Shown here: one piece after another, positions 3,529 through 63,501 of the stretch | How the letters are laid out: each line of letters begins with the position of its first letter | Numbering within the stretch: position 1 is the first letter of the stretch | From: Candidatus Acetothermia bacterium | Lineage (GTDB): Bacteria > Bipolaricaulota > Bipolaricaulia > RBG-16-55-9 | Assembly (NCBI GenBank): GCA_016201405.1 | Contig: JACQCZ010000014.1 | Coordinates: forward strand, 106,631-170,630 | Direction of reading: 5' to 3' | DNA length: 64,000 nt | Position numbers and translations under genes: made by a program | The notes under the pieces: generated by a model | Told to the model about the DNA's origin: nothing | Database searches by the model: none | The model's input: only the letters and a program-made list of their open reading frames with translations

Positions 3529-4467
3529 TTGCACATTGTGAGTAAGCCGATGGAGTGGTGGAAGTATCTCATTTTGGCGATCTTTGGCATTGGCATTGTC
3601 GAAGGGATTAGGCATTTGGAGACAGAGGCACTTCTAGCGCTCTTCTTAGGATCTTCGTTCGTGGCCGCAACATGGCTCATCACTCGATCTTCAATCGGAG
3701 AGGCGATTGCAGACCGCATTCGCAGCAGCCCAAAAACTCCTTCCATTAGCGATGCGGTTGCAGAGCACATCCGAGGTAAGACTCTGGCGCAGTTGGACAA
3801 GATAGACAGACCCGACCTGATCTCTCAGCCTGACAAACTCTTCTCAAAGGGTGACAAGAAGAAGATTGAGTCAGATTTTCCAGAAGGAATCATCGCCATC
3901 ATGTTTACCGACATGGAGAATTTTACAGGTCTCATCGAGCGTGGCGATGAAGAGGCTTATCGATTGTTGAAGAAACACAACCAAGTCATCCATGAATCGG
4001 CCAAGCAGTGGAAGGGATATGTTGTCAAGAGCTATGGCGATGGCTTCATGGTCGCCTTTCCGAGCGCGCGCCGCGCTGTCTATGCCGCCATCAGCATCCA
4101 ACAGCTTCTGGAGAACCAGAATTGCAATTTGATGGCCGATGAACAGATTCATGTGCGCATCGGCATTGATGCGGGAGAGCCGATCAAAGAGGGCGATGAT
4201 TACATTGGCAGGGCGGTCAACCGGGCAGCCCGCATCTCAGCACTTGCCAGCGGCAAGCAGATCTATGTATCCGACACGGTGAGGCAGCTCGTCGGCCCTA
4301 TCCAAAATCTGCAATACATTGATCTCGGAGACCAGTCGCTAAAAGGATTCAAAGACCAGCACCAGATCTTTGAGATCAGCCGCGTCGAGGCCCTGGCCCA
4401 CCCGCTAGATTCTGAGATTGACCGCGGCATTGCAGAGCTGGAGAAGCGCGTCAACACCGGAAAATGA
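3529..4467 (+). CDS. membrane-anchored class III adenylate/guanylate cyclase
   Basis: 312 aa; N-terminal TM helices, then cyclase core (FTDMENFT...YGDGFMVAF...RIGIDAGEPI). Stop overlaps ruvX start (ATGA). Confidence 0.8.
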   Translation: MHIVSKPMEWWKYLILAIFGIGIVEGIRHLETEALLALFLGSSFVAATWLITRSSIGEAIADRIRSSPKTPSISDAVAEHIRGKTLAQLDKIDRPDLISQPDKLFSKGDKKKIESDFPEGIIAIMFTDMENFTGLIERGDEEAYRLLKKHNQVIHESAKQWKGYVVKSYGDGFMVAFPSARRAVYAAISIQQLLENQNCNLMADEQIHVRIGIDAGEPIKEGDDYIGRAVNRAARISALASGKQIYVSDTVRQLVGPIQNLQYIDLGDQSLKGFKDQHQIFEISRVEALAHPLDSEIDRGIAELEKRVNTGK

Positions 4468-25395: not shown

Positions 25396-26268
25396 ATGCC
25401 CCTTCTGCTCGATTCAGCCTATCTCAAAAAGCTCGAAAACCTGGGTCTGGTCATTCGGGGGCGCTTTCATGGCTATATGACCGGAAAGCGGCTCACTTCC
25501 CGCTCCGGGATGAGCCTGGAATTTGCTGAATACAAAGAATATTCGCCGGGGGATGATTTTCGCTATGTAGACTGGAATCTCTATGGACGCCTTGGGAAGC
25601 TCTTTGTCAAACGCTTTAACCGCGAAGAGGACGTTCCGATCTATCTCTTTTTGGACATTAGCCATTCGATGGCCATCGGAGAAAAGCTCAATTACGCCGT
25701 TCTGCTGGCGGGCACGCTGGCCTATTTAGGACTGAAAGAATTCAATCGCGTCGGGATCTTTCCGTTTGCCAGCGATCTGGCTCTCGGCGTGCCTCCCAAA
25801 GGGAGCTACAAACAGCTCTTCCAGATCTTCCATTTCTTAGAGAAAGTCGTGCCAGCGGGAGAGACCTCCATCAATGAGTCCCTGACGCGCTTTACGCGCA
25901 TCCGCCGTGAGAGCGGGCTGGCCGTCATTATCAGCGACATGCTCAGCGAGGATGGCTTTGAAGAGGGACTGGCACAGCTCCTCTATCATGGCTATGAGGT
26001 GATCGTCCTTCATCTGTTGGCTCCCGATGATTTGAATCCAGCGTGGAATGGCGAGATTCGCCTCAAAAATATTGAAGACCAGAAGGAGATTACAGTCCAT
26101 GTGGATCGCGCTGCGCTGAACGAGTACCAGACGGCCTTGGATAATTATCGTTCAAGACTGGAAGCATTCTGTCGTGAGCGCGGCATCCGCTATGCCCTGG
26201 TCTCTACGGACAGCCCTCTTGAGAAGACAGTCTTCGAGACCTTGCGGGAAGGGGCGCTGGTTCAATGA
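25396..26268 (+). CDS. DUF58 domain protein (MoxR partner)
   Basis: 290 aa; DUF58 signature YVDWNLYGRLGKLFVKRF and LFLDISHSM; directly downstream of MoxR. Confidence 0.85.
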   Translation: MPLLLDSAYLKKLENLGLVIRGRFHGYMTGKRLTSRSGMSLEFAEYKEYSPGDDFRYVDWNLYGRLGKLFVKRFNREEDVPIYLFLDISHSMAIGEKLNYAVLLAGTLAYLGLKEFNRVGIFPFASDLALGVPPKGSYKQLFQIFHFLEKVVPAGETSINESLTRFTRIRRESGLAVIISDMLSEDGFEEGLAQLLYHGYEVIVLHLLAPDDLNPAWNGEIRLKNIEDQKEITVHVDRAALNEYQTALDNYRSRLEAFCRERGIRYALVSTDSPLEKTVFETLREGALVQ

Positions 26269-28154
26269 CCTTTCTATCGGGCATTGCGCTCTGGCTTCTA
26301 GGCCTTGGTGCGATCATCACATTTATTTATTTCTTAAAGCGCCAGGCGCGGGTGCAGCCCGTCTCGACGCTCTTTCTCTGGCAAAGGATTGAGCAGAGGC
26401 CCCAGAGCGCGCTCCGTTTTCAGTGGACCCAGCTCCTCGGGCTCATCTTGCAGTTACTGGCTCTCACAGCCATTGTGGTGGGGATTGCCCAGCCGGTGAT
26501 CTACTCTGCCAGCGGCGGTGTGGGACGAATGGCCATTCTGCTCGATGGAAGCGCCAGCATGCGAGCGCTCATGCCTTCTGAAAAGATCACACGCTTTGAG
26601 CGGGCCGTACAGCGGGCTCAAGGGTTGCTCGATGAGAATCCGGCTGCCGAGGTGACCTTGGTCGAGGCACAGACGCACAGCGCAATCCTTGTACCGCCTA
26701 CCCATGATCATTCCTTCATTCGCAAGGCTCTGAGCGACGCCAGGCCGACGTATCAGGGGAATGCTGACTCGGGCGAGCTGCTCAGCCTTCTTCAAAGTCA
26801 GAGCAGCACAGGCTATGACCAAGTTGTCCTGATCAGCGATCAAGCTGCCAAGCCGCAGCAGCAGCAATTGGGGATTGATGTTGAGTCCGTCTTGGGAGAT
26901 GAATCTTCTGAAAATATTGCCCTTACGGACTTTTCTGTGCGTGAGCAGCCCAATGGCAAGGGGTATGACTTCTATCTCCAAGCCTGGAACTCATCGAGTG
27001 ATGCAGTAAACGTTCCGCTGGATATAGAAGCCGATGGGAAATCCGTCCAGTCGGATGTGATCACCATCCCCGCGCATGGCTCTCTCTCACGAACTTTCTC
27101 ATCGTCGCTTCGCTATGCGGATGAGTTTCGAGCCAAGATCGATACCACGGCTCTTCCCGACGACTGGAGCGATGATGACGTACGCTATGCGACATCTCCA
27201 CAGCCACCCCCCTGGAAGATTTTATGGGTAGGCAAGATCAATTTTTATCTAGAGAGCTTTTTGCAGAATTCAGGAGAGGTTGACCTGACCGAGAAGGCGA
27301 CCCTGGATGAAGCGGGAGATCTCAACCGCTATGACGTGGTCCTGCTCAATCAAGTCGATCTTTCGGATGCTCAGGCTGGCGCGGGTCATTATCTGGCATT
27401 TGGCGGCTCTTTTGGAAGCTATATCCTCTCCAAAAGCATTCATGATCTGACGAGTGGCGCGGTGGATGTCCAGAAAGATGACCCACTCTTGCAAGGGATG
27501 GACCCGACCGCTTGGCGACTGCTCCACATTCCGGACGCGGCCGTCGATCCCAAGGGAGAGGTCTTATTATCTTCCGAGAGTCTTCCGTTTCTTTATATTT
27601 ATGAGAAGCCGGGTCTGCGGCTTTCGTATATCGGAGCCGATTTGGAGGCTTCCAATCTTGTATTGTCGATTGATTTTCCAATACTGATCTATCGTCTGCT
27701 CTCTTGGCTTTCTCCCCGCTCTGGGGAGAGCACAACGCTGACGGCTGGAGACGAGCTTCCGCTATCATCATTAGAAAATATAAAGAGCATTGTCGATCCG
27801 CAAGGCAAGACCTGTCAATACAATTCTTCCGCAAGCCAGTGCGGCAGCTTGGGCGAGATCGGTTTCTATCAGGCCACGCGAGCCGATGGAGAGGCCGTGA
27901 CTTTCGCCGCCAATGCGGATCCAACAGAGTCTATTTGGGAGGATGCTTCGGATGCGGCTGCAACTGCAGTGACTCCGACGAGCTCACAGCAGGCAGGGTC
28001 ACTGGGCGACACGCCGCAAGCGTTAAAAGCGGCGATCCCTGTATGGCCCTATTTGCTGGCGATTGGATTGATCTTATTACTGGCTGAGCTCTTCACATTT
28101 CACCGTCCAACGGCAATTCCATGGCTGCCCTCCCTGGGGAGGAAGAGGGCATGA
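26265..28154 (+). CDS. BatA-like membrane protein with VWA domain
   Basis: 629 aa; N-terminal BatA-type TM region, MIDAS-like DGSAS motif, C-terminal TM helix. Start overlaps upstream stop. Confidence 0.7.
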   Translation: MTFLSGIALWLLGLGAIITFIYFLKRQARVQPVSTLFLWQRIEQRPQSALRFQWTQLLGLILQLLALTAIVVGIAQPVIYSASGGVGRMAILLDGSASMRALMPSEKITRFERAVQRAQGLLDENPAAEVTLVEAQTHSAILVPPTHDHSFIRKALSDARPTYQGNADSGELLSLLQSQSSTGYDQVVLISDQAAKPQQQQLGIDVESVLGDESSENIALTDFSVREQPNGKGYDFYLQAWNSSSDAVNVPLDIEADGKSVQSDVITIPAHGSLSRTFSSSLRYADEFRAKIDTTALPDDWSDDDVRYATSPQPPPWKILWVGKINFYLESFLQNSGEVDLTEKATLDEAGDLNRYDVVLLNQVDLSDAQAGAGHYLAFGGSFGSYILSKSIHDLTSGAVDVQKDDPLLQGMDPTAWRLLHIPDAAVDPKGEVLLSSESLPFLYIYEKPGLRLSYIGADLEASNLVLSIDFPILIYRLLSWLSPRSGESTTLTAGDELPLSSLENIKSIVDPQGKTCQYNSSASQCGSLGEIGFYQATRADGEAVTFAANADPTESIWEDASDAAATAVTPTSSQQAGSLGDTPQALKAAIPVWPYLLAIGLILLLAELFTFHRPTAIPWLPSLGRKRA

Positions 28155-30721
28155 TTCGGTTCAGCCAGCTCTGGCCGCTTCTCTTACTGCTTATCCCTAT
28201 CGGACTGCTCCTCTGGCAGTGGGAGGCGCTGAAGCGCTTTACCCTCGGCGACCGCATTTCGTTTGGGGCGCGGCTCGGAGTTGTGGCGCTTGGCATCCTC
28301 GCACTCTCAGGACCGCAATTGTTGAGCTGGACGGAATCGCACTACGTCTATTTTCTGGCAGATCTTTCCAAAAGCGTGAGCCCTCAAGACCGGGGTCAGC
28401 TGCTCTCGGAGCTTCGCGCACTCGCCAAGCCGCAAGAGTACACTCAATACGGCCTGATCGTCTTTGGGGTCAAGCCGTATGTCGAAGCTCCATTCAGCCC
28501 AATGTTAAATTTGAACGAGGTCTTGACGAATGTCGATAGTGAAGGAACAGATTTGCAGGCCGCACTGGAGCTGGCCATGTCAACCTTCCCCCGTGATGGC
28601 AAGAAGACGATTGTGCTTCTTTCCGATGGCCAGCCAAGCCAGGGAGAGACGACAGAGGCGCTGGCCCGCGCCAAACGGGAAGGGGTAGAGATCTTCACTT
28701 TGCCGATGGACCCGCCAGCCTCTGAGTTTTCAATCCAGACGATCCAGGCTCCACAAGAGGTCGCAGTCCAGCTCCCCTTCTCATTCCAGAGCGTCGTCTA
28801 TGCCTCACGATCCAGCACCGGAAAGCTGCTCACATACCGCAATGAGACACTGATTGACACAAAAGATGTCGCTCTGCGTCCTGGGCTCAATTACTTTTCG
28901 TATAGCGACAAAGTGAATGACCCCGGCAGCTATGAGTACCGAGCCGAGCTTGTTGTCGCTGGCGATGCGCTCCCTCAGAACAATCATTATCGCGCATTGG
29001 TCGATGCGATCGGCGATCCGCGCATTCTTCTGGTAGAGAACAATTCTTCAGAGCAAGAATCGGTGATGGGAAAGCTGTTAAAAAACTCTGGCTATGCCTT
29101 CTCCAAAGTGAGCCTGAATGAGCTGGCGCCGACAGCCAGCTCCCTGCTCTCATACCGAGCTGTGATTATGAACGAAGTGCCGCTCAAAGATCTCACGGCA
29201 CGGCAGACCGAATTTCTAGAAAATTATGTGCGCGATCTCGGCGGAGGGCTCTTCCTCGTCCAGGGCAGGCAGTCCGTCGAAGAGTTTTATGACCGCCAGT
29301 TTGAGCAGATGCTGCCCATCACCTATGAAGGTCCGCAAGAGATCCAGCGCCCCGCGCTCGCTTTGGTGATGCTGCTCGACCGCTCCGGCAGCATGGGCGA
29401 GATCGCCGGCGGTGATACCAAGGGCAGCTATATGAAGATCGATCTCTTAAAACAGGCAGCACGAGAGGCCGTCTCCAAGCTCGATGACAACAGCCTTGTC
29501 GGCATCATCGGCTTTGACTCGACCTACGACTGGCTGGTAGACATTGGCCCCGTGAAAGGTCGGAAAGATGAGATTTTAGCTGCAGTTGATAAGCTCTATG
29601 CCAATGGCGGGACAGACATCTATCAGCCTCTCAAAGATGCCGTCGCCCAGTTGCAGAAGCTGACCGCGCGCGTCAAGCACATTCTGGTCTTCTCCGATGG
29701 AAAAGTATCCCAGCAGGGGCGCGATTTCGATCAAATCTTCCAGGAGATTGCCGGCAGCACGATCAGCGCCTCATCCATTGCCATCGGAGCACAAGCCGAT
29801 TTTGACTTCATGTGGAAGCTGGCGGATGCGGGGAGCGGCGCCAAATATCCAGTGGCCGATGCGCGGGATCTGCCACGAATCACGCTGGAAGAGATGGTGC
29901 GGCTGGAACGCGCCCGCTGGGTCAAAGGGCCATTGGGTGTCGAGGCCGGACCCTTTGCAAATCAGCTGACTGGAATTGACCCCAGCACCATCCCCAATGT
30001 CGATGGCTATGTTCTGACGTTTGAGAAGCCAACGGCGCAGACGCAGCTTCAGGTCCGTGCTGACAAAGATCATGCAGACCCTCTGGTGAGTCAGTGGCAC
30101 TATGGTCTGGGCAAGGTCTTTGTGCTCAACACCAGCTTTGAAGGCGAAGGCCTGGAGCGCTGGAAGTCCTGGAGCGGACTGGGCGAGCTGAGCTCTGAGA
30201 TTCTGAGCCAGGTCTACAGCGAGAGCACCATCAAGCCCAAAGAGCTAGCCGTCTGGACAGATTCTTCTAACTCAACGCTGAGCGTCCATGTTGAAGCGGA
30301 CCGCGACGGCAAATGGCTGGATCAATTGGTAATGAATGGGCAACTCAACACACCGGATGGCAAGTCAATTCCTCTCGACTTGGAACAGACGGGACCAGGG
30401 ACCTATCAGGCCACCGTAAAAGATCTGAGCGAAGGCGTCTATCTGCTCAATTTGGGTGAAGATTCACTCGGTCAAGTCCAAGAGGCTGTCCAGATTCCCT
30501 ATGCAGCGGAGTACAAAAAGATTGGGCTGAATGAGCCACTTTTGCAACAGATCGCAGAAGTGACTGGAGGAGAATATCTTGAGAATCCAGATCGCTTGCA
30601 AGGCCTGTTGCAGGGCCGGACACTGATCTACCGGGATATCTGGCAGGAGATTTTATTGGCAGCCCTCTTCTTCTTTCTGGCCGATCTGGCTCTGAGAAAA
30701 GTGCCTTTTCTGCACGCTTAA
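28151..30721 (+). CDS. BatB-like membrane protein with two VWA domains
   Basis: About 856 aa from ATG 28151 (ATGA overlap); N-terminal TM, two MIDAS-like motifs (DLSKS and DRSGS), C-terminal TM anchor. Confidence 0.7.
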   Translation: MIRFSQLWPLLLLLIPIGLLLWQWEALKRFTLGDRISFGARLGVVALGILALSGPQLLSWTESHYVYFLADLSKSVSPQDRGQLLSELRALAKPQEYTQYGLIVFGVKPYVEAPFSPMLNLNEVLTNVDSEGTDLQAALELAMSTFPRDGKKTIVLLSDGQPSQGETTEALARAKREGVEIFTLPMDPPASEFSIQTIQAPQEVAVQLPFSFQSVVYASRSSTGKLLTYRNETLIDTKDVALRPGLNYFSYSDKVNDPGSYEYRAELVVAGDALPQNNHYRALVDAIGDPRILLVENNSSEQESVMGKLLKNSGYAFSKVSLNELAPTASSLLSYRAVIMNEVPLKDLTARQTEFLENYVRDLGGGLFLVQGRQSVEEFYDRQFEQMLPITYEGPQEIQRPALALVMLLDRSGSMGEIAGGDTKGSYMKIDLLKQAAREAVSKLDDNSLVGIIGFDSTYDWLVDIGPVKGRKDEILAAVDKLYANGGTDIYQPLKDAVAQLQKLTARVKHILVFSDGKVSQQGRDFDQIFQEIAGSTISASSIAIGAQADFDFMWKLADAGSGAKYPVADARDLPRITLEEMVRLERARWVKGPLGVEAGPFANQLTGIDPSTIPNVDGYVLTFEKPTAQTQLQVRADKDHADPLVSQWHYGLGKVFVLNTSFEGEGLERWKSWSGLGELSSEILSQVYSESTIKPKELAVWTDSSNSTLSVHVEADRDGKWLDQLVMNGQLNTPDGKSIPLDLEQTGPGTYQATVKDLSEGVYLLNLGEDSLGQVQEAVQIPYAAEYKKIGLNEPLLQQIAEVTGGEYLENPDRLQGLLQGRTLIYRDIWQEILLAALFFFLADLALRKVPFLHA

Positions 30722-46756: not shown

Positions 46757-49450
46757 TTATGAGCCAAGCTTTGTTTGTAGCGTCTTTCTCACTTCTTGCA
46801 AGGCTCTCTCAAGATGCTTAGGCTGGTCGCCGCCGCCCTGGGCGAAGCGCGGATTCCCGCCGCCCTTGCCGCCCACAATCTGGGCTGCATCCCGAACGAG
46901 ATCGCCAGCGCGAATCTTCTTGGTGAGTGATTCGCTCACTTTTGCGATGAGCAGGGCACGTCCATTCTGCTCGCTGCCAAATAAAACTACACCGTGCTCC
47001 AATTGCCCTTCGACGAGATCCGCCAGCTCTTTGAGGGCATCCACATCAAGATCAATTTTTTTGAAAAGAATCTGACAATCAGAGACCCGCTCAGCACTTT
47101 GAACCAGCTCATCGCGCATCGTTATGAGACTGGCTGTCGTAAGTTTCTTGAGTTGTTGCTCTAGTTGTGATTTCTCGTTGATTAATAATTCAAGCTTGGA
47201 TGGAATCTCACTCTCAGACGTCTTCAATTGAGTTGAGAGTGTGCTGAGAATCTGCTCTTTCTCATGAAGATAACGCAACAGATTTTCGCCAGTGGCCACA
47301 TAGACACGCCGCACCCCCGCAGCCACTCCCTCTTCTCGAACAATCTTGAAGAGCCCAATCTCGCCTGTGCGGCTGACATGAGTTCCGCCGCAGAGCTCAA
47401 TGCTAAAGGGCGAGCCAATTCCAGTCTCGCTCACAATCGAGACGACACGGACCTTCTCTTTGCCTTGATAATCTTCGGGGAAGAGCGCCATTGCGCCTTT
47501 TGCCTTGGCATCTTCCAATCTCTCTTCTGCAATACGCACCGGCAGATCGCGCAAGATTATTTCGTTTGACATCTCGTCGATCTTGCGAATCTCATCCTCA
47601 GTAAGCGCGGAAAAGTGTGTGAAGTCAAAGCGCAGCTCATCGGGAGCCACTAGCGATCCCGCTTGAATTCCCGTTTTGTGATTCAAGACTTTGCGAAGCG
47701 CCGCATGCAAAATATGCGTGGCGGTATGGTTTCGCTGCGTTGCTTTGCGAGATGGAAGGTCAATTTCAAGTTTGCAATTCTCTCCTTTTTCAAAATAGCC
47801 ATCAATCACCTCTACCTGATGGAAGAAAATTCTATGTTGCCGTTTTTCTACATTAATTACCTTCGCTTTACTTGTCTGGTCAATATTTTGGATAATTCCA
47901 GTGTCAGACACTTGACCTCCACCGTCAGGGTAGAAAGGGCTAGCGTTAAACACAATGTATCCTTGCATCCCTGGTGTCAATCTTGTAGTCACACCTATTT
48001 GTTTATCTAGTTGTTTATCGAAAATACCGAGAATTTCTGAGGTTTGTTGAGCTGATTCATACCCAACAAACTGAGTAGGAGGCAAAGCTTCAACCTTATA
48101 TTCAAGCCTCAATGATCCACTTACAGTTACCTTTGACCTCTTTCGCTGCATATCCATCTCTGCTTCAAATCCTACTCGGTCTACTGAAAAACCTTGTTCC
48201 TTGGCAATGTCTTCAATGATTTGAATGTGCAGGCCCTCTCTGTCATGTAGAGGGAAGACCTCTGCACCTGTGAGAACTTTTTCGGCTTTCTTCGATTTGA
48301 TCTCGAACAACTGCTCTAAATATCTCATGCTCGAGTTATAAGTCTTGTCAAAGCGCTCCTCTTCCACAGAGATAGCCTTGAGAATAAAATCATGCCGCCC
48401 GCGTAATTCTGGATATACATCACCCATGTGGTCAATGACAGATTTCGAAACAGAACTCAGAAATGGCCCATTCAGCCCAAGCTTCATGCCAAAGCGGATG
48501 GCGCGGCGGATGAGCATTCGCAGCACATAGCTGCGGTCTTCGTTTCCAGGCAAGACGCCATCTGCAATGAGGAAGGTCATCGCCCGCCCGTGATCAGCAA
48601 TGACGCGATAGGGCACAATCTGCTCTCTCATCTGAGCTACTGAATGACCCGTCAGCTTGCGAATCGCTGCAAAGATTGGCTCAAATAGATCGGTGTCATA
48701 GTTGGCCTCTTTATTCTGGAGGACTGCGGTTATGCGCTCAAGACCCATGCCAGTGTCTACGCTGGGGGTGGCCAAAGGCGTCGTCTTGCCACTGGAGTCG
48801 ATGTTATACTGCATAAAGACCAGATTCCAGATCTCCCAGAAGCGCTCGCACTTTTCCACTTCAGATGAGGTCTTTGGCGTGCACTTTCCTTTGAGCGAGC
48901 AGATGCAGCGCTCAATGCCTCGATCATAATAGATCTCGGAATTGGGGCCATTGGGACCCGTATCCCCCATCGACCACCAGTTGTCTGCTTTGCCTAAGCG
49001 CTCGATACGGGATTCAGGAAGCTTTGCGATCTCGCGCCACAGACTGGCGGCTTCATCATCGTCTTGATAGACCGTGACTGAGATGAGCATGGGGTCTATT
49101 TTCAATGTTTTGGTGACAAACTCCCAAGCGTAAAAAATGGCCTCCCGCTTGAAATAGTCGCCAAAGCTGAAGTTACCCAGCATCTCGAAAAAGGTCTGAT
49201 GGCGCGGGCTAGGCCCGACCTCTTCGAGGTCATTGTGCTTTCCTGAGAGGCGGGCGCATTTCTGAGCCGTCGTTGCCCGCGTGTATGGGCGCTTTTCGCG
49301 CCCCAGAAATAGATCCTTGAACTGCACCATGCCCGAATTGACCAGCAACAGTGTTGGGTCGTCAGGCACAAGCGACGAGCTCGGGACAATGGTATGCCCC
49401 TGAGCCTCAAAATACTTCAAAAATGCCTTGCGAATCTCAAATGATTTCAT
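46757..49450 (-). CDS. alaS: alanine--tRNA ligase
   Basis: 897 aa; class II core, editing domain zinc motif (HTATH...CGGTH) and C-terminal DHHA1-like domain. Confidence 0.95.
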   Translation of the reverse strand: MKSFEIRKAFLKYFEAQGHTIVPSSSLVPDDPTLLLVNSGMVQFKDLFLGREKRPYTRATTAQKCARLSGKHNDLEEVGPSPRHQTFFEMLGNFSFGDYFKREAIFYAWEFVTKTLKIDPMLISVTVYQDDDEAASLWREIAKLPESRIERLGKADNWWSMGDTGPNGPNSEIYYDRGIERCICSLKGKCTPKTSSEVEKCERFWEIWNLVFMQYNIDSSGKTTPLATPSVDTGMGLERITAVLQNKEANYDTDLFEPIFAAIRKLTGHSVAQMREQIVPYRVIADHGRAMTFLIADGVLPGNEDRSYVLRMLIRRAIRFGMKLGLNGPFLSSVSKSVIDHMGDVYPELRGRHDFILKAISVEEERFDKTYNSSMRYLEQLFEIKSKKAEKVLTGAEVFPLHDREGLHIQIIEDIAKEQGFSVDRVGFEAEMDMQRKRSKVTVSGSLRLEYKVEALPPTQFVGYESAQQTSEILGIFDKQLDKQIGVTTRLTPGMQGYIVFNASPFYPDGGGQVSDTGIIQNIDQTSKAKVINVEKRQHRIFFHQVEVIDGYFEKGENCKLEIDLPSRKATQRNHTATHILHAALRKVLNHKTGIQAGSLVAPDELRFDFTHFSALTEDEIRKIDEMSNEIILRDLPVRIAEERLEDAKAKGAMALFPEDYQGKEKVRVVSIVSETGIGSPFSIELCGGTHVSRTGEIGLFKIVREEGVAAGVRRVYVATGENLLRYLHEKEQILSTLSTQLKTSESEIPSKLELLINEKSQLEQQLKKLTTASLITMRDELVQSAERVSDCQILFKKIDLDVDALKELADLVEGQLEHGVVLFGSEQNGRALLIAKVSESLTKKIRAGDLVRDAAQIVGGKGGGNPRFAQGGGDQPKHLERALQEVRKTLQTKLGS

Positions 49451-52440: not shown

Positions 52441-54954
52441 ATGTTTAAGGGAACCTTAGCAAAGCCATACAAACTATTATTTTGTCTGCTCGCCTTGGCA
52501 GGGCTGTTGGCATTCTTTAGCAATGCATCTGTCTTAGCCCAGCGGCAGCCCGCCACTTCGAACCCGGCGCCGACGACGCTCCCTAAAGGGGACATCGTCT
52601 TTGTGATGGATGAATCTGGCAGCATCTTCAATGATGCGATGGCCGTAGACGCCAATTTGAACCAGATTGTCCAGCTCCTTGAGGGCGTCCTTGATTATCA
52701 AGTCGGCATCGTCGGCTTTGGCTCATATGTGGGGCACATGGGCACTCAATATGAAGGCCAGCCCTACATCAACCTAAAGCTGACGTCTGACATGAAGGCT
52801 TTTTCAAAAGCCCTCAAGACGCTAGTGACAGATGGCAATTTTGAGTATGGATTCGATGCCGTCAAGCTGGCCACTCAGGACGAGCTGGGCTTCCGCCCAG
52901 GCGCGGGCGTCTGCGTCGTGCTCATCACCGATGAAGATGCCGATCTCTCCAGTGAGCAGCCAGTCAGCCGCGAGGATGCTATTGCGGCCTTACAGAAGAT
53001 CCACGCCGATTTTCTCGGAATTGTGGACCCGTCGTATGGAACGACCATGCAAGATTACGGGCCATTGGCTGGAAGTCTGGCGCAGGCGACCGGTGGAAAA
53101 ATCTTTGATATCGCGAAGTTCCGCAAAGATGCAGGCCCGGTCCTGCGTGAGCTGATCTCATCGTGCGTCAGCACGGTTCAGAATAATAATCAAAACAATA
53201 ACCAAAACAACGGAAACACGGGCACCCCAAGCACACAGCCTCAACAACCCCAGCCTAGCTATGCAACCAGCGAAGAGCTCGATCAGCTCAAGATCGCCTT
53301 CACGGCGCTCTCCAACCAGAACACGGACTTTTTGGCTCGCCTGAGCCAGATTGTGAGCCGCATCGAGGCACTGGAAGCGAAGGGCAATGGGCTGCCAGCC
53401 GATCTTGAAGCGCGGCTCACGACCTATGAGCGCAACTTCCAGCGCATTGACATCACTTTCCAGAACTTTACTGCCAACTTCAATCAGTACAATTTGCGCC
53501 TTAATGACGCCGAGCAGAATATTGCCTCGCTACGGACTACAATTGCCGCTCTGCAAGAATCCAACCAGAATATGGCGATCCGAATGCAGAGCTTGGAGGA
53601 CCGCATCAAAGCCCTGGAAGGCTCTGACATTGGCGACCGCGTCAAGGCACTCGAAGCCGTCTTTGTCGAATTTGACAGCTTCAAGACCGACTTTGGCGCT
53701 CTGCTCAACTGGCGTGACGACGCCAAGCAGAGACTGGATGCGCTGGAGAAGGCATTTGCCGATGCGAATAACCAATTCAATGCTATCCACGCAACCCTGA
53801 CAGACTTACAAAACTCAGACAGCGGCATAAACTCGCGCGTCGACGACCTGACGGGACGTCTGAAGAGCTTGGAGGATCAGACCGCACAGCTCTCTTCGGG
53901 TCTTGGAGCACGGATCGATGCATTAGAGAAGCAGCTCGCCGGATTTGCTGGATATGAGGCCCGCTTCCAGGAGATCGAATCGAAACTCAATGGCATTGAT
54001 CTGAGTGTATATGATGCCAAATTCCAAACATTTGCTGGCGAGATTGATGCACTGCAAAAAGCCGTCACAGAGAACTCTCAAGATATCGCTTCGTTCAAAG
54101 ACCGGGCTTCCGCTTGGGATTTGGATCTTTCTAACTTGAAAGGAGCGGTTGGCTCCCTGGTCGATAAAGTGAGCGCCCTGGGCGGCCTGGTCCAGCAGGT
54201 CGCAGACTTGCAATCCGCCGTTCAGGGACTTCAGACAAAGCTCCAGGATACGCAAGACTCATTCTCAGCCCGATTTCAGACGAACGAAGCAAATTTGGAT
54301 GCCCTTAAGAAAGAGATCGATGGCGTCAATAGCGATCTTCAAGATTTGATCAAGCGCCTCAGCGACAAACCGTTCGCGCTTCAATCCGACTTGGATTCGC
54401 TCGCCTCAAGCTTGGGCAGCCGCATCCAGTCTCTCTTGCACCGCATCCAAAACTTGGAGGCGGCAGGACAGGGACCTGATCCCGAGACGAAGAGCCAGCT
54501 TGAGAACCTGGCCAACTTGATCTCGCAGCTCCAGGTGAGCCTGGCACAGCAGGCATCGAAACAGAATGCCGATTACGAAGAAGTGAAGAATCTGATCGCG
54601 GGTCATGAGGAATGGCTCCAAAAGATCGAGGCTTGGAAGTCGATGGATGACGAGCGGGTGGCTGGCCTCGATCAACGACTGACGACTGTGGAGGGTAGTC
54701 TCAATGACCTCTCTGCACAGCTGAAAGATAGCCAGAACAAGCTGACTGCGAATCAGAAGACGATGGGAGATCTCCAGCACTCTCTCACCGACTTGAAGAC
54801 CAAGCTGGATGACCTTGCCAATCGAATGGATGGACAGAGCAATGCGCTCGATCCCGCCAAGCTGCGCTCGGCTCAGCGTCTGGCAGAGATTGCCTTCCTG
54901 ACCGCAGTGGCAGCCATCGGAATCTCGCTGCTCTTCTTTCTATCCAAATCGTAA
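52441..54954 (+). CDS. secreted VWA-domain protein with long coiled-coil region and C-terminal TM anchor
   Basis: 837 aa; signal peptide, VWA with MIDAS DESGS, N/Q-rich linker, about 550 aa of heptad-like repeats (RIEALEA, RIKALEG, RVKALEA, RIDALEK), C-terminal TM helix. Confidence 0.7.
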   Translation: MFKGTLAKPYKLLFCLLALAGLLAFFSNASVLAQRQPATSNPAPTTLPKGDIVFVMDESGSIFNDAMAVDANLNQIVQLLEGVLDYQVGIVGFGSYVGHMGTQYEGQPYINLKLTSDMKAFSKALKTLVTDGNFEYGFDAVKLATQDELGFRPGAGVCVVLITDEDADLSSEQPVSREDAIAALQKIHADFLGIVDPSYGTTMQDYGPLAGSLAQATGGKIFDIAKFRKDAGPVLRELISSCVSTVQNNNQNNNQNNGNTGTPSTQPQQPQPSYATSEELDQLKIAFTALSNQNTDFLARLSQIVSRIEALEAKGNGLPADLEARLTTYERNFQRIDITFQNFTANFNQYNLRLNDAEQNIASLRTTIAALQESNQNMAIRMQSLEDRIKALEGSDIGDRVKALEAVFVEFDSFKTDFGALLNWRDDAKQRLDALEKAFADANNQFNAIHATLTDLQNSDSGINSRVDDLTGRLKSLEDQTAQLSSGLGARIDALEKQLAGFAGYEARFQEIESKLNGIDLSVYDAKFQTFAGEIDALQKAVTENSQDIASFKDRASAWDLDLSNLKGAVGSLVDKVSALGGLVQQVADLQSAVQGLQTKLQDTQDSFSARFQTNEANLDALKKEIDGVNSDLQDLIKRLSDKPFALQSDLDSLASSLGSRIQSLLHRIQNLEAAGQGPDPETKSQLENLANLISQLQVSLAQQASKQNADYEEVKNLIAGHEEWLQKIEAWKSMDDERVAGLDQRLTTVEGSLNDLSAQLKDSQNKLTANQKTMGDLQHSLTDLKTKLDDLANRMDGQSNALDPAKLRSAQRLAEIAFLTAVAAIGISLLFFLSKS

Positions 54955-59350: not shown

Positions 59351-61237
59351 CTAGCGGACGGATTGAGCTCCGTTCGCGGTCCAGCCCCACTCCCATGCGT
59401 TCCAGAAGGGGGTCCTCGTCAATGGATTGCCCTTTACATAGTTGGCCAATCCAGTCTTAGCACTGATGATATCCGTTCTCTCATAGAGCGGAATGAAGGG
59501 GAGCTCGGCGCTGAAGATATCTTGCATTTTGCTGATAACGGCAGCTCTTGCGTCCAGATCGAACGTCGCAAGTGCCTGGACTCGCAATTTATCGAAATCG
59601 GAGTTGATCCAACCGATGACGTTGCCACCTGAGAAGTTGTTCGAGGCTCGGGCCAGGTTGTCATAAGCAGCCGGAGTGCTTGGATCATCAGCCCACAGCC
59701 CACCTGAGAGCTCATCGGCAGGGGCCTCGCCGATGCCACCGGCGCTCGCGAACTCAATGATTCCTTGCCAGTTGCAGTTCGATCCATTGACATAGTTGGT
59801 GCTGAAGAGAATCGCCGCTGGCTCATTGGTCGGCTCAAGAGCGATGCCCACACCCTTGAGGTCTTGCTGCAAGAAGGCTTGGGTGTTCTTACGGAAGCCG
59901 GCTGTGGTCGTCACATGAGGCAGGCGGAACTCAACTCGGCGCCCGTCTGTAGTCAATCGATCCAGAATGCCATTGCCATCGGAGTCAGCCCAGCCCAGTT
60001 GAGCCAAAATCGTCTTGGCCGCATCTTGGTTGAACTCGTAAGTATTTAAATTGGGGTTGTACCCGGTGTCACCCTTGACCACGAATGAGTTGCTTGGCAC
60101 GCCGCCAGGGAAGACGACCGGTGCAAGTGTCGCCCGGTCAATGGCCTGGATGATGGCCTGCCGGGTTCGTGGATCGCCAAGCTGCAGGTCATCAGCAATT
60201 TGACACTCTGGAAGACCGAGACCTCGCTTGGTGTAGCTGTTGAAGTTGAGCTGCTCAATAAATCCAGATGGGCTCACTTCTACGGTACCCGCATTCCCCA
60301 ACGATGTCTGAAGCTGAGACGGGTTGACGCCGGCCAAGCCGATGTCATCGGTGGCATCAACAGCTCCATTGAGAACGTTGGCCTGTAGAGTCTCTTGCGC
60401 AACGAAGTACTGAACGACTACTTCTTGGACATATTTGCTGGCATCTCCACCTGGAGGAGCAATGAAGAAGTCGCCGCGGCGGGCGAGCCTCATAAACTGG
60501 CCGCGCTGCCACTCAACGAGCTTGAATGCACCGCTGCCTACTACAGAGGTCGCTTTAGCACCTGCTGGGTCAGCACCAAGGAACTGTGCTGAAATGATGG
60601 AGGCGGCATTCCCCTGGTCCGCTTGTGCGGCGGCAACGGCACTGTTGAAGACACTCTCCCAAACGTGCTTGGGAGCCACATCATAGAAACGGGCGAGACC
60701 CAATCGGCCCGTCGGGCTGGCGTAAAAGAGATTGGGCTGGTTGTACACAATCGTGAAGCTCTTTGGATCTTTGACTTTGATCTCTTTGACGGTGTCAGAG
60801 AATGTGCGGAATGAGGCAGGAATGAACTGGTTCTGCTGTACGGTATAGGTGAAGGTCACATCGTCCGTGGTGATATCGACCCCATCACTCCACTTGGCGT
60901 CCGTGCGGATTGTCCAATCCACTTCCTGGCTGACGAAGTTGCCGCTTGAGTCTTTGTTGATCCGGACGCGGCCATTGGCCTCCGTTGGAATCTCAGTTGC
61001 CAGCCCTGGCTGGATCTTTCCGTTAGAATCAAAATAGCTAAAGCCGATGTCCATGAGCGCCAGCGCGTTCTCTTTCGTGTCCGCTGAGCCTTCCCACGGA
61101 TTGAGATTGTCCGGCTCTTGGTTGGCGCCGATGACCAAGTTGTTATGATCTGCACTGTTTACGACGGGGCTAGCGCCCGCCCACCCGGTAGAGATAAGCA
61201 TGAGAACGGCTAATACAGCTAACGACAGTCTTTTCAT
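59351..61237 (-). CDS. ABC transporter substrate-binding protein, family 5 (peptide/nickel type)
   Basis: 628 aa; signal peptide and family-5 SBP architecture; no ATPase genes in the cluster. Confidence 0.8.
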   Translation of the reverse strand: MKRLSLAVLAVLMLISTGWAGASPVVNSADHNNLVIGANQEPDNLNPWEGSADTKENALALMDIGFSYFDSNGKIQPGLATEIPTEANGRVRINKDSSGNFVSQEVDWTIRTDAKWSDGVDITTDDVTFTYTVQQNQFIPASFRTFSDTVKEIKVKDPKSFTIVYNQPNLFYASPTGRLGLARFYDVAPKHVWESVFNSAVAAAQADQGNAASIISAQFLGADPAGAKATSVVGSGAFKLVEWQRGQFMRLARRGDFFIAPPGGDASKYVQEVVVQYFVAQETLQANVLNGAVDATDDIGLAGVNPSQLQTSLGNAGTVEVSPSGFIEQLNFNSYTKRGLGLPECQIADDLQLGDPRTRQAIIQAIDRATLAPVVFPGGVPSNSFVVKGDTGYNPNLNTYEFNQDAAKTILAQLGWADSDGNGILDRLTTDGRRVEFRLPHVTTTAGFRKNTQAFLQQDLKGVGIALEPTNEPAAILFSTNYVNGSNCNWQGIIEFASAGGIGEAPADELSGGLWADDPSTPAAYDNLARASNNFSGGNVIGWINSDFDKLRVQALATFDLDARAAVISKMQDIFSAELPFIPLYERTDIISAKTGLANYVKGNPLTRTPFWNAWEWGWTANGAQSVR

Positions 61238-61476
61238 AGATACCCTCCTCTGGGATTTGATGATCTTTTGTCTCTACAGCCGGAAGCCGATGATCGCGTC
61301 ACCTCCTGCGCACCACATCCAGCCAAGAGTTTGCCTCATCAGAACATTAGCACAACTGGCTGAAACGAATCAAGTCACGGCCATCCTACCTGTAATTTTC
61401 GCCCCGCTGACAACACGGGCCGGCTCACATCTTGTCCTCTCAGAAATTGTTTTGGGAAGAGATCACTGCCATGCCC

Positions 61477-61506
61477 TTGACATGGGTGCATCTTGAAGTT
61501 TATAAT
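61477..61506 (+). promoter_or_regulatory. sigma70-type promoter of hsp20
   Basis: TTGACA at 61477-61482, 18-nt spacer, TATAAT at 61501-61506. Confidence 0.6.
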
Positions 61507-61507
61507 A

Positions 61508-61538
61508 ACTTAGCAGTCGTTAGTATAGACTGCTAAGT
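61508..61538 (+). promoter_or_regulatory. CIRCE-like inverted repeat (TTAGCAGTC-N9-GACTGCTAA) between the -10 box and the hsp20 start
   Basis: Perfect 11-bp arms with 9-nt spacer; one compensatory change per arm relative to CIRCE (TTAGCACTC-N9-GAGTGCTAA). Confidence 0.55.
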
Positions 61539-61571
61539 GAATGCGAACCATTCAGAAGGAGTGATAAGAAT

Positions 61572-62006
61572 ATGATTAGATTGCCACGAGTGTGGGTGCA
61601 GCCAGCAGGTCTAAGCCGTCATATGGATGAGATGTTCAATGAGCTCTTCACGGACTGGCCAGAGGCAGCTTCGTTCGGTCGCACAGACATCTATGAGAAG
61701 GATGGAACTCTTCTCTTTGAGACGGAGATGCCTGGGGTAAAGCGCGAGGACATCAATATCAGAGTCGAGGAGGGCCACCTCATCATAAGCGGAGAGACGA
61801 AGCGTGAGGAGAAGATTGAAGAGCAGAACTTCTTCCGCATGGGACGCCGCTATGGAAAGTTCCAGCGCTCCTTCCCGCTCCCAGAGGAGGCTGGCGATCC
61901 CAGGAAGATCGAGGCCAAGTTCCAAGATGGAATCTTGAAGGTCTCCGTGCCTCTTAGCCATTCGCTGAGAGAGAAGGATAAGCCCGTCCAGATAGCAGTC
62001 GGATAA
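61572..62006 (+). CDS. Hsp20/alpha-crystallin family small heat shock protein
   Basis: 144 aa; alpha-crystallin domain (FETEMPGVKREDINIRVEEGHLIISGE...GILKVSVP). Confidence 0.9.
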   Translation: MIRLPRVWVQPAGLSRHMDEMFNELFTDWPEAASFGRTDIYEKDGTLLFETEMPGVKREDINIRVEEGHLIISGETKREEKIEEQNFFRMGRRYGKFQRSFPLPEEAGDPRKIEAKFQDGILKVSVPLSHSLREKDKPVQIAVG

Positions 62007-62036: not shown

Positions 62037-62076
62037 GGGGCATGGTGCTGGCTGCCATGCCCCACTTCCTTTCTTG
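62037..62076 (+). terminator. intrinsic terminator downstream of hsp20
   Basis: 9-bp GC-rich stem (ggggcatgg / ccatgcccc), 9-nt loop, T-rich tail acttcctttcttg. Confidence 0.6.
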
Positions 62077-62103
62077 ATCTGGATACATCCTCTTTTTTAT
62101 AAT
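62074..62103 (+). promoter_or_regulatory. putative sigma70-type promoter of pyrBI
   Basis: TTGATC at 62074-62079, 18-nt spacer, TATAAT at 62098-62103; RBS GAGAGGGG before ATG 62126. Confidence 0.45.
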
Positions 62104-62107
62104 GTGA

Positions 62108-63500
<1,393 letters not shown>

Positions 63501-63501
<1 letters not shown>

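Follow-up and report, generated by a model that had tools for sequence, protein, structure and literature searches.

The window, by which we mean the whole 64 kb stretch of DNA that was analysed, carries the small heat-shock gene hsp20, and an inverted repeat resembling the CIRCE operator of heat-shock genes lies between this gene and its promoter. The features of the locus, in the order in which they are read, are as follows.

61477-61482, + strand: -35 hexamer TTGACA (promoter scan), preceded by C
61501-61506, + strand: -10 hexamer TATAAT (promoter scan), with an 18-nt spacer from the -35 hexamer
61508-61518, + strand: left arm of the putative CIRCE, ACTTAGCAGTC, with the core TTAGCAGTC at 61510-61518 and 2 extra paired bases at 61508-61509
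61519-61527, + strand: spacer of the putative CIRCE, GTTAGTATA (gttagtata), 9 nt, which differs in every orthologue
61528-61538, + strand: right arm of the putative CIRCE, GACTGCTAAGT, with the core GACTGCTAA at 61528-61536 and 2 extra paired bases at 61537-61538
61556-61561, + strand: Shine-Dalgarno sequence AAGGAG, 10 nt 5′ of the ATG
61572-62006, + strand: hsp20 coding sequence, from the ATG at 61572 to the stop at 62006, 144 aa, alpha-crystallin domain
62037-62063, + strand: terminator-like GC-rich hairpin of 11 pairs, 7 of them G-C

An earlier note on this DNA had described, between the TATAAT box and the hsp20 start, an inverted repeat whose 11-bp arms pair perfectly across 9 nt, directly downstream of a near-consensus promoter, and present results agree with it on each of these points. 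The promoter hexamers of hsp20 (TTGACA-18-TATAAT) match the sigma-70 consensus at 12 of 12 positions in the promoter scan, and the repeat finder returned a single inverted repeat within 61250-61600, with arms that are 100% complementary and 9 nt between them. The core of the operator begins 3 nt (aac) past the -10 hexamer and ends 35 nt short of the ATG. Because the start of transcription is expected 6–8 nt downstream of the -10 hexamer, and the operator lies only 3 nt past it, the start predicted from the -10 position would be at approximately 61512-61514, inside the left arm. The note had also counted one compensatory change per arm relative to the CIRCE consensus, and this holds exactly: compared with the canonical TTAGCACTC-N9-GAGTGCTAA, the site has 16 of 18 bases the same at a spacing of exactly 9, and the deviations are two symmetric positions that form a C7G/G7′C swap.

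The protein encoded by hsp20 matches the Hsp20 domain (PF00011, E 6.7e-21, 74.7 bits) over residues 40-141 and falls below every NCBIfam equivalog cut-off; it is a generic member of the alpha-crystallin family. Downstream of hsp20 lie pyrB and pyrI (62111-63501), which overlap by 4 nt, the latter encoding the regulatory chain of aspartate carbamoyltransferase, and pyrB has a promoter-like site of its own at 62074-62103 (10/12). Because of this site and the hairpin at 62037-62063, the hsp20 transcript is most likely monocistronic. A 98-aa ORF at 61200-61496 (+) runs through the intergenic region as far as the hsp20 promoter and has no Pfam match; it is probably not a gene, because it overlaps the -35 box as well as the beginning of the divergent SBP_bac_5 gene. 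Elsewhere in the window, and unrelated to the operator, we noted a BatA/VWA-domain gene pair at 26265-30721 (629 and 866 aa) and, at 52441-54954, a protein of 837 aa whose N-terminus carries a VWA domain and which also has a very long stretch of coiled coil.

The hsp20 site was the sole CIRCE match in the 64 kb window with either the variant or the canonical pattern at up to 3 mismatches, and no further copies were found in the window at this threshold. When the window was shuffled with dinucleotide composition preserved, a match was found in 0 of 100 shuffles for the variant pattern and in 1 of 100 for the canonical one. A relaxed search of the window with the outer parts of the arms gave 1 additional match, which is at chance level. 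Searches of the window for hrcA, groES, groEL, clpB, htpG, rpoH, dnaK and dnaJ, by tblastn and by HMMs built from fetched loci, found none of these genes.

The hsp20 operator is conserved in relatives of the source bacterium. In the closest syntenic relative, GCA_037444325.1, Hsp20 is 68% identical, the gene order SBP-hsp20-pyrB-pyrI, and with it the succession hsp20-pyrB-pyrI, is kept, and the operator upstream of hsp20 reads TTAGCAGTC-acagtggta-GACTGCTAA, with the arms as in the window and a different spacer. In this genome dnaK-dnaJ lie ∼8 kb from hsp20, and the hrcA operator, TTAGCAGTC-N9-GAGTGCTAA, is found on the same contig 12 kb away. Orthologues at 97–50% identity include proteins named as Hsp20 of Bipolaricaulota or Acetothermia. 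An alignment of 10 orthologous upstream regions showed conservation only of the -35 and -10 hexamers, the CIRCE arms and the Shine-Dalgarno block: CTTGACAA at -35 is invariant, TATAAT is nearly so, TTAGCAG...CTGCTAA and a GGAGG/AGGAG block are conserved, and promoter spacers, flanks and the 9-nt loop vary freely. As judged from this alignment, the pattern is a classic phylogenetic footprint, which points to a promoter plus an operator.

Moreover, metagenomes were scanned with the Hsp20 protein as query, and in the 80 loci obtained TTAGCA-N15-TGCTAA was present 30–190 nt upstream in approximately 20 of the 27 homologues of at least 40% identity. Human-gut Hsp20 homologues of only ∼32–39% identity also carry canonical or near-canonical CIRCEs. 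No CIRCE was found upstream of the hsp20 homologues L203, L132, L134 and L138/L139, and membership in the HrcA regulon is thus not universal in the phylum. One of these, L203:9359-10456, belongs to Candidatus Bipolaricaulota sp. J31 (complete chromosome of 1.89 Mb); this homologue (48% identity) stands directly behind dnaX-ybaB-recR with neither a CIRCE nor a promoter-like gap, hence the regulation of Hsp20 differs within the phylum. At L138:264-2857 and L139:3001-5594, an hsp20 whose product is 37% identical to the query stands in a row with groES and groEL, and upstream of this hsp20 no CIRCE was recognisable, the best match having 6 mismatches. At another locus, L129, a CIRCE (1029-1055) precedes hsp20 (1107-1538, 59% identity), and the same-strand ORF that follows at 1633-2610 is a sigma-70-family gene with a match to the RpoH-cluster HMM (E 4.7e-34), so that L129 may hold an hsp20-sigma operon under HrcA.

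We scanned one genome per GTDB species for exact copies of the variant, TTAGCAGTC-N9-GACTGCTAA with its 18 specified bases, and found it in the genomes of at least 120 species. Among the matches listed are Clostridia, Dehalococcoidia, Anaerolineae and other Chloroflexota, Patescibacteria, Acidimicrobiia, Acidobacteriota, Cloacimonadota, a Mycoplasma and others, as well as isolates of Xanthomonadales (Stenotrophomonas, Pseudoxanthomonas). For the 120 listed loci, which do not include the source genome, the first ORFs within 300 nt on either side were clustered and the clusters named by Pfam. The gene downstream of the variant encodes GroES at 47 of the 120 listed sites, HrcA at 27, an RpoH-type sigma factor at 12, HtpG at 7, ClpB at 6, GroEL at 5, Hsp20 at 3 and DnaK at 1; hrcA or groES is the downstream gene at 74 listed sites, and 106 of the 120 stand directly 5′ of groES, groEL, hrcA, dnaK, rpoH, htpG, clpB or hsp20. 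Among the 113 listed sites that have enough upstream sequence for the promoter scan, 73 have a sigma-70-like promoter of at least 9/12, mostly ending 1–5 nt before the repeat, and this layout of promoter and then repeat is the same as in the window.

The variant and canonical forms also occur together. In L076 a variant and a canonical site lie at 2504-2530 and 2537-2563, with 6 nt between them (33 nt from start to start), and in L012 and L047 the sites are hybrids in which variant and canonical arms are mixed. Since both kinds of arm are found together at single loci, one HrcA would read both. Hence position 7 of the arm is either C or G for HrcA in many lineages, which is ordinary CIRCE variation, and the variant needs no special regulator. 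This freedom at position 7 across many phyla is useful for profiles in regulon prediction. Paired sites of one kind were observed as well: L028 has two exact variant copies (259-285 and 303-329, 17 nt between), and the contigs L140 (1717, 2889) and L144 (2029, 2675) have two GAG/CTC-type sites each.

Two groups of genes beside the listed variant sites deserve separate description. At 12 of the listed loci the variant ends 1–35 nt 5′ of an RpoH-type sigma-factor gene, for example in L032, where the variant at 3549-3575 is followed by an RpoH-type ORF at 3581-4462. The RpoH-linked loci inspected (L004, L014, L022, L032, L048, L059 and L070 among them) are from Xanthomonadales or other Gammaproteobacteria, and the position of the variant would place sigma-32 under HrcA in them; a CIRCE on rpoH has been reported in Geobacter (PMC545781). 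At 6 of the 120 listed sites, in genomes of Chloroflexota and Actinomycetota, the variant is directly 5′ of a small Zn_ribbon_8 (FmdB-like) gene (L065:3919-4227, L090:703-1050, L093:4824-5162, L103:3227-3541, L106:5520-5774 and L122:270-596), and the protein of L103 has a serine-rich tail. A search for chaperone genes near these CIRCE-linked Zn_ribbon_8 genes found none, and the Zn_ribbon_8 gene may be an unrecognised member of the HrcA regulon.

The earlier note had proposed that the genome be checked for hrcA and for the same inverted repeat upstream of groESL and dnaK; hrcA was found, and so was a similar element before the operon that contains dnaK. The alanyl-tRNA synthetase encoded in the window (AlaRS, 46757-49450, minus strand) matches an NCBI protein from ‘Candidatus Acetothermia bacterium’ at 100% identity, and its next relatives are from Bipolaricaulota/Acetothermia. 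A search with the DnaK of GCA_037444325.1 led to a 15-kb Logan contig of run SRR12113413 (L207) that carries hrcA-grpE-dnaK-dnaJ and whose DnaK is identical to P0258, also named ‘Candidatus Acetothermia bacterium’; contigs with the window's own genes come from the nearby runs SRR12113414, SRR12113415 and SRR12113389. L207 is thus tied to the source organism by protein identity and organism name, not by overlapping DNA. Its HrcA (L207:7841-8896) is a TIGR00331 equivalog, scoring 242.8 bits where the cut-off is 197.2, and has a structural match in Thermotoga maritima HrcA, 1STZ. The operon has a promoter, TTGACA-17 nt-TATCAT, followed by the operator TTAGCAGTC-aaacatgga-GAGTGCTAA (L207:7812-7838), which ends 2 nt before the ATG. 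The G-variant left arm TTAGCAGTC is therefore common to the hrcA operator and the hsp20 operator of the source organism, and the refuting condition set by the earlier note, a genome with neither hrcA nor a similar element before other chaperone genes, thus comes out on the side of control by HrcA.

Three further Bipolaricaulota genomes have hrcA-grpE-dnaK-dnaJ behind a sigma-70-like promoter and a TTAGCAG-type CIRCE, which is TTAGCAGTC-N9-GAGTGCTAA in one of them and TTAGCAGAC-N9-GATTGCTAA in two. Over five Bipolaricaulota genomes (L207:7812-7838, L208:8347-8373, L209:3173-3199, L210:3383-3409 and L211:3353-3379), the hrcA operators are conserved imperfect palindromes, with GTC/GAG or GAC/GAT at the inner positions. 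Each of the five ends at the hrcA start codon or 1–3 nt before it, which leaves no room for normal Shine-Dalgarno spacing. We compared these with 28 distinct operators linked to hsp20, in which the outer 6 bases of each arm are essentially invariant and positions 7–9 vary, mostly in both arms together (GTC/GAC, GAC/GTC, GAG/CTC, CTC/GAG). In these 28 operators 94% of cells are paired, compared with 20–43% in slid controls, and double-change cells number 24 against 9.2 ± 2.0 in column shuffles, none of 500 shuffles reaching 24. The simplest reading of such concerted changes is that a dimer recognises the site symmetrically and that sub-lineages have inherited their versions, the latter being included because the shuffle control does not remove relatedness. 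It is doubtful, but worth naming, that the hsp20 CIRCE of the Bipolaricaulota type has kept its perfect palindrome (GTC/GAC, GAC/GTC, GAG/CTC) under a second constraint beyond half-site recognition by HrcA; such a constraint could be a 5′-terminal mRNA stem-loop for transcript stability, or a need of DNA shape or cruciform formation for especially tight repression.

Three other explanations of the repeat were weighed against control by HrcA. The palindrome could act mainly in the RNA, as a stem-loop at the 5′-end of hsp20 mRNA that sets stability or works as a thermometer, with HrcA secondary or absent. The joint changes of positions 7–9 on both arms of the hsp20 operators, beside the imperfect palindromes conserved before hrcA in the same genomes, would fit such a role, although the column shuffles behind the covariation figure do not correct for relatedness of the sequences; in the centroid fold modelled for the predicted 5′ UTR the CIRCE hairpin is retained, and an effect of CIRCE on the stability of groE mRNA in B. 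subtilis was reported by Yuan and Wong in 1995. However, the Shine-Dalgarno sequence and start codon are free in this fold, whose z-score is only -2.0, no Rfam family matched at gathering score (a lone chance-level match had E 4.3), and the same class of 27-mer precedes hrcA and groES, at which it is established as a site of HrcA repression. Moreover, the invariant TTAGCA/TGCTAA would for the most part be upstream of the point where transcription is predicted to start, so that a role in RNA does not explain the conservation of these outer bases. We thus regard an action mainly in RNA as quite unlikely. An RNA thermometer of the ROSE or fourU kind was considered separately and rejected, with no Rfam match, an unpaired Shine-Dalgarno sequence in the centroid fold and a fold that is unconvincing.

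That a different, lineage-specific repressor reads TTAGCAGTC-N9-GACTGCTAA, and controls hsp20 apart from the chaperone operons, is a still weaker candidate. It was suggested by the two symmetric departures from the textbook consensus and by a window of 64 kb with neither a second copy nor hrcA. Yet the organism's hrcA operon has the G-variant left arm in its operator, 74 listed sites in other genomes have the exact variant before hrcA or groES, some operators combine a variant with a canonical arm, and no candidate regulator gene is adjacent to the hsp20 site. The lineage-specific operator that the earlier note had offered as an alternative therefore does not stand: the exact variant is present in the genomes of at least 120 species from many phyla, mostly 5′ of groES and hrcA, and with repression by HrcA well supported and CIRCE precedents published, this alternative is not needed. 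A palindrome that arose by chance and has no function is the least probable of all, since no shuffle in 100 had a match even at 3 mismatches; it is effectively refuted by the conservation of the arms, which persists in orthologues while spacer and flanks diverge.

We conclude, with a probability of approximately 0.9, that the inverted repeat is a CIRCE operator and that hsp20 is a member of the HrcA regulon (class I heat shock) in the source bacterium. This reading is based on the anatomy of promoter and repeat, on the conservation of the site in orthologues, on the variant at groES and hrcA in other genomes, and on the matching hrcA operator in the same organism, all of which speak at the level of sequence; the HrcA-like repression of hsp20 that the earlier note had suggested is in this sense supported. 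Binding, the GroEL titration loop, induction by heat and the exact start of transcription would follow by analogy with B. subtilis and other HrcA/CIRCE systems. In those systems GroEL/ES maintains HrcA in the form that binds DNA, and stress titrates the chaperonin and relieves repression. Here, at normal temperature, an HrcA dimer that GroEL/ES keeps active would bind TTAGCAGTC-N9-GACTGCTAA, cover the predicted start and block RNA polymerase or the formation of the open complex, and the very strong housekeeping-type promoter would be shut. Heat or unfolded proteins would then tie up GroEL, or inactivate HrcA directly, upon which HrcA would leave the operator and hsp20 would be transcribed at a high rate into a single-gene message.

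To our knowledge, Bipolaricaulota (Acetothermia, OP1) is a candidate phylum known only from metagenome-assembled genomes, and our search of the literature on heat shock or HrcA in Bipolaricaulota/Acetothermia found nothing relevant. With the present analysis the phylum's predicted HrcA regulon gains a small heat-shock gene. By that search the HrcA operator on hsp20 is new for this phylum, but it is not a new kind of operator or of regulation, and the understanding of heat-shock control is unchanged by it.

Among the closest known systems are the class I operators, under CIRCE/HrcA control, of groESL and hrcA-grpE-dnaK-dnaJ in Bacillus subtilis, to which the consensus used here belongs. The hsp20 site shares with them the 9-N9-9 geometry and 16 of 18 consensus bases, and its position between a housekeeping-sigma promoter and the start codon, over the predicted start region; as in B. 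subtilis, the organism also has an hrcA equivalog, whose own operon is preceded by a CIRCE. It differs from them in that position 7 of each arm is G/C-swapped, in that the target is a (most likely) monocistronic hsp20 and not a chaperonin or DnaK operon, and in that the host is an uncultured member of Bipolaricaulota known from sequence alone. CIRCE control over a small heat-shock gene, which the earlier note had treated as unusual, turns out to have precedents, as CIRCE recurs on metagenome hsp20 homologues down to ∼32% identity and has been published in lactobacilli. The hsp16 gene of L. acidophilus has a canonical CIRCE (PMC3179173), hsp1 of L. plantarum has a CtsR box in addition to its CIRCE and is more strongly expressed when hrcA is mutated (PMC3842655), and hsp3 of L. 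plantarum is predicted to be under HrcA alone (PMC6503756). These resemble the present case in having CIRCE in the promoter region of a small Hsp20-family gene, whereas their sites are canonical and their phylum is different; moreover, hsp1 is also controlled by CtsR, and no CtsR-type direct repeat was noticed at the hsp20 of the window. ROSE and fourU thermometers of rhizobia, enterobacteria and cyanobacteria likewise use the 5′ leader to control small heat-shock genes, but the element in the window, with no Rfam match and with the Shine-Dalgarno sequence unpaired, is a DNA palindrome that is shared with hrcA and groES promoters.
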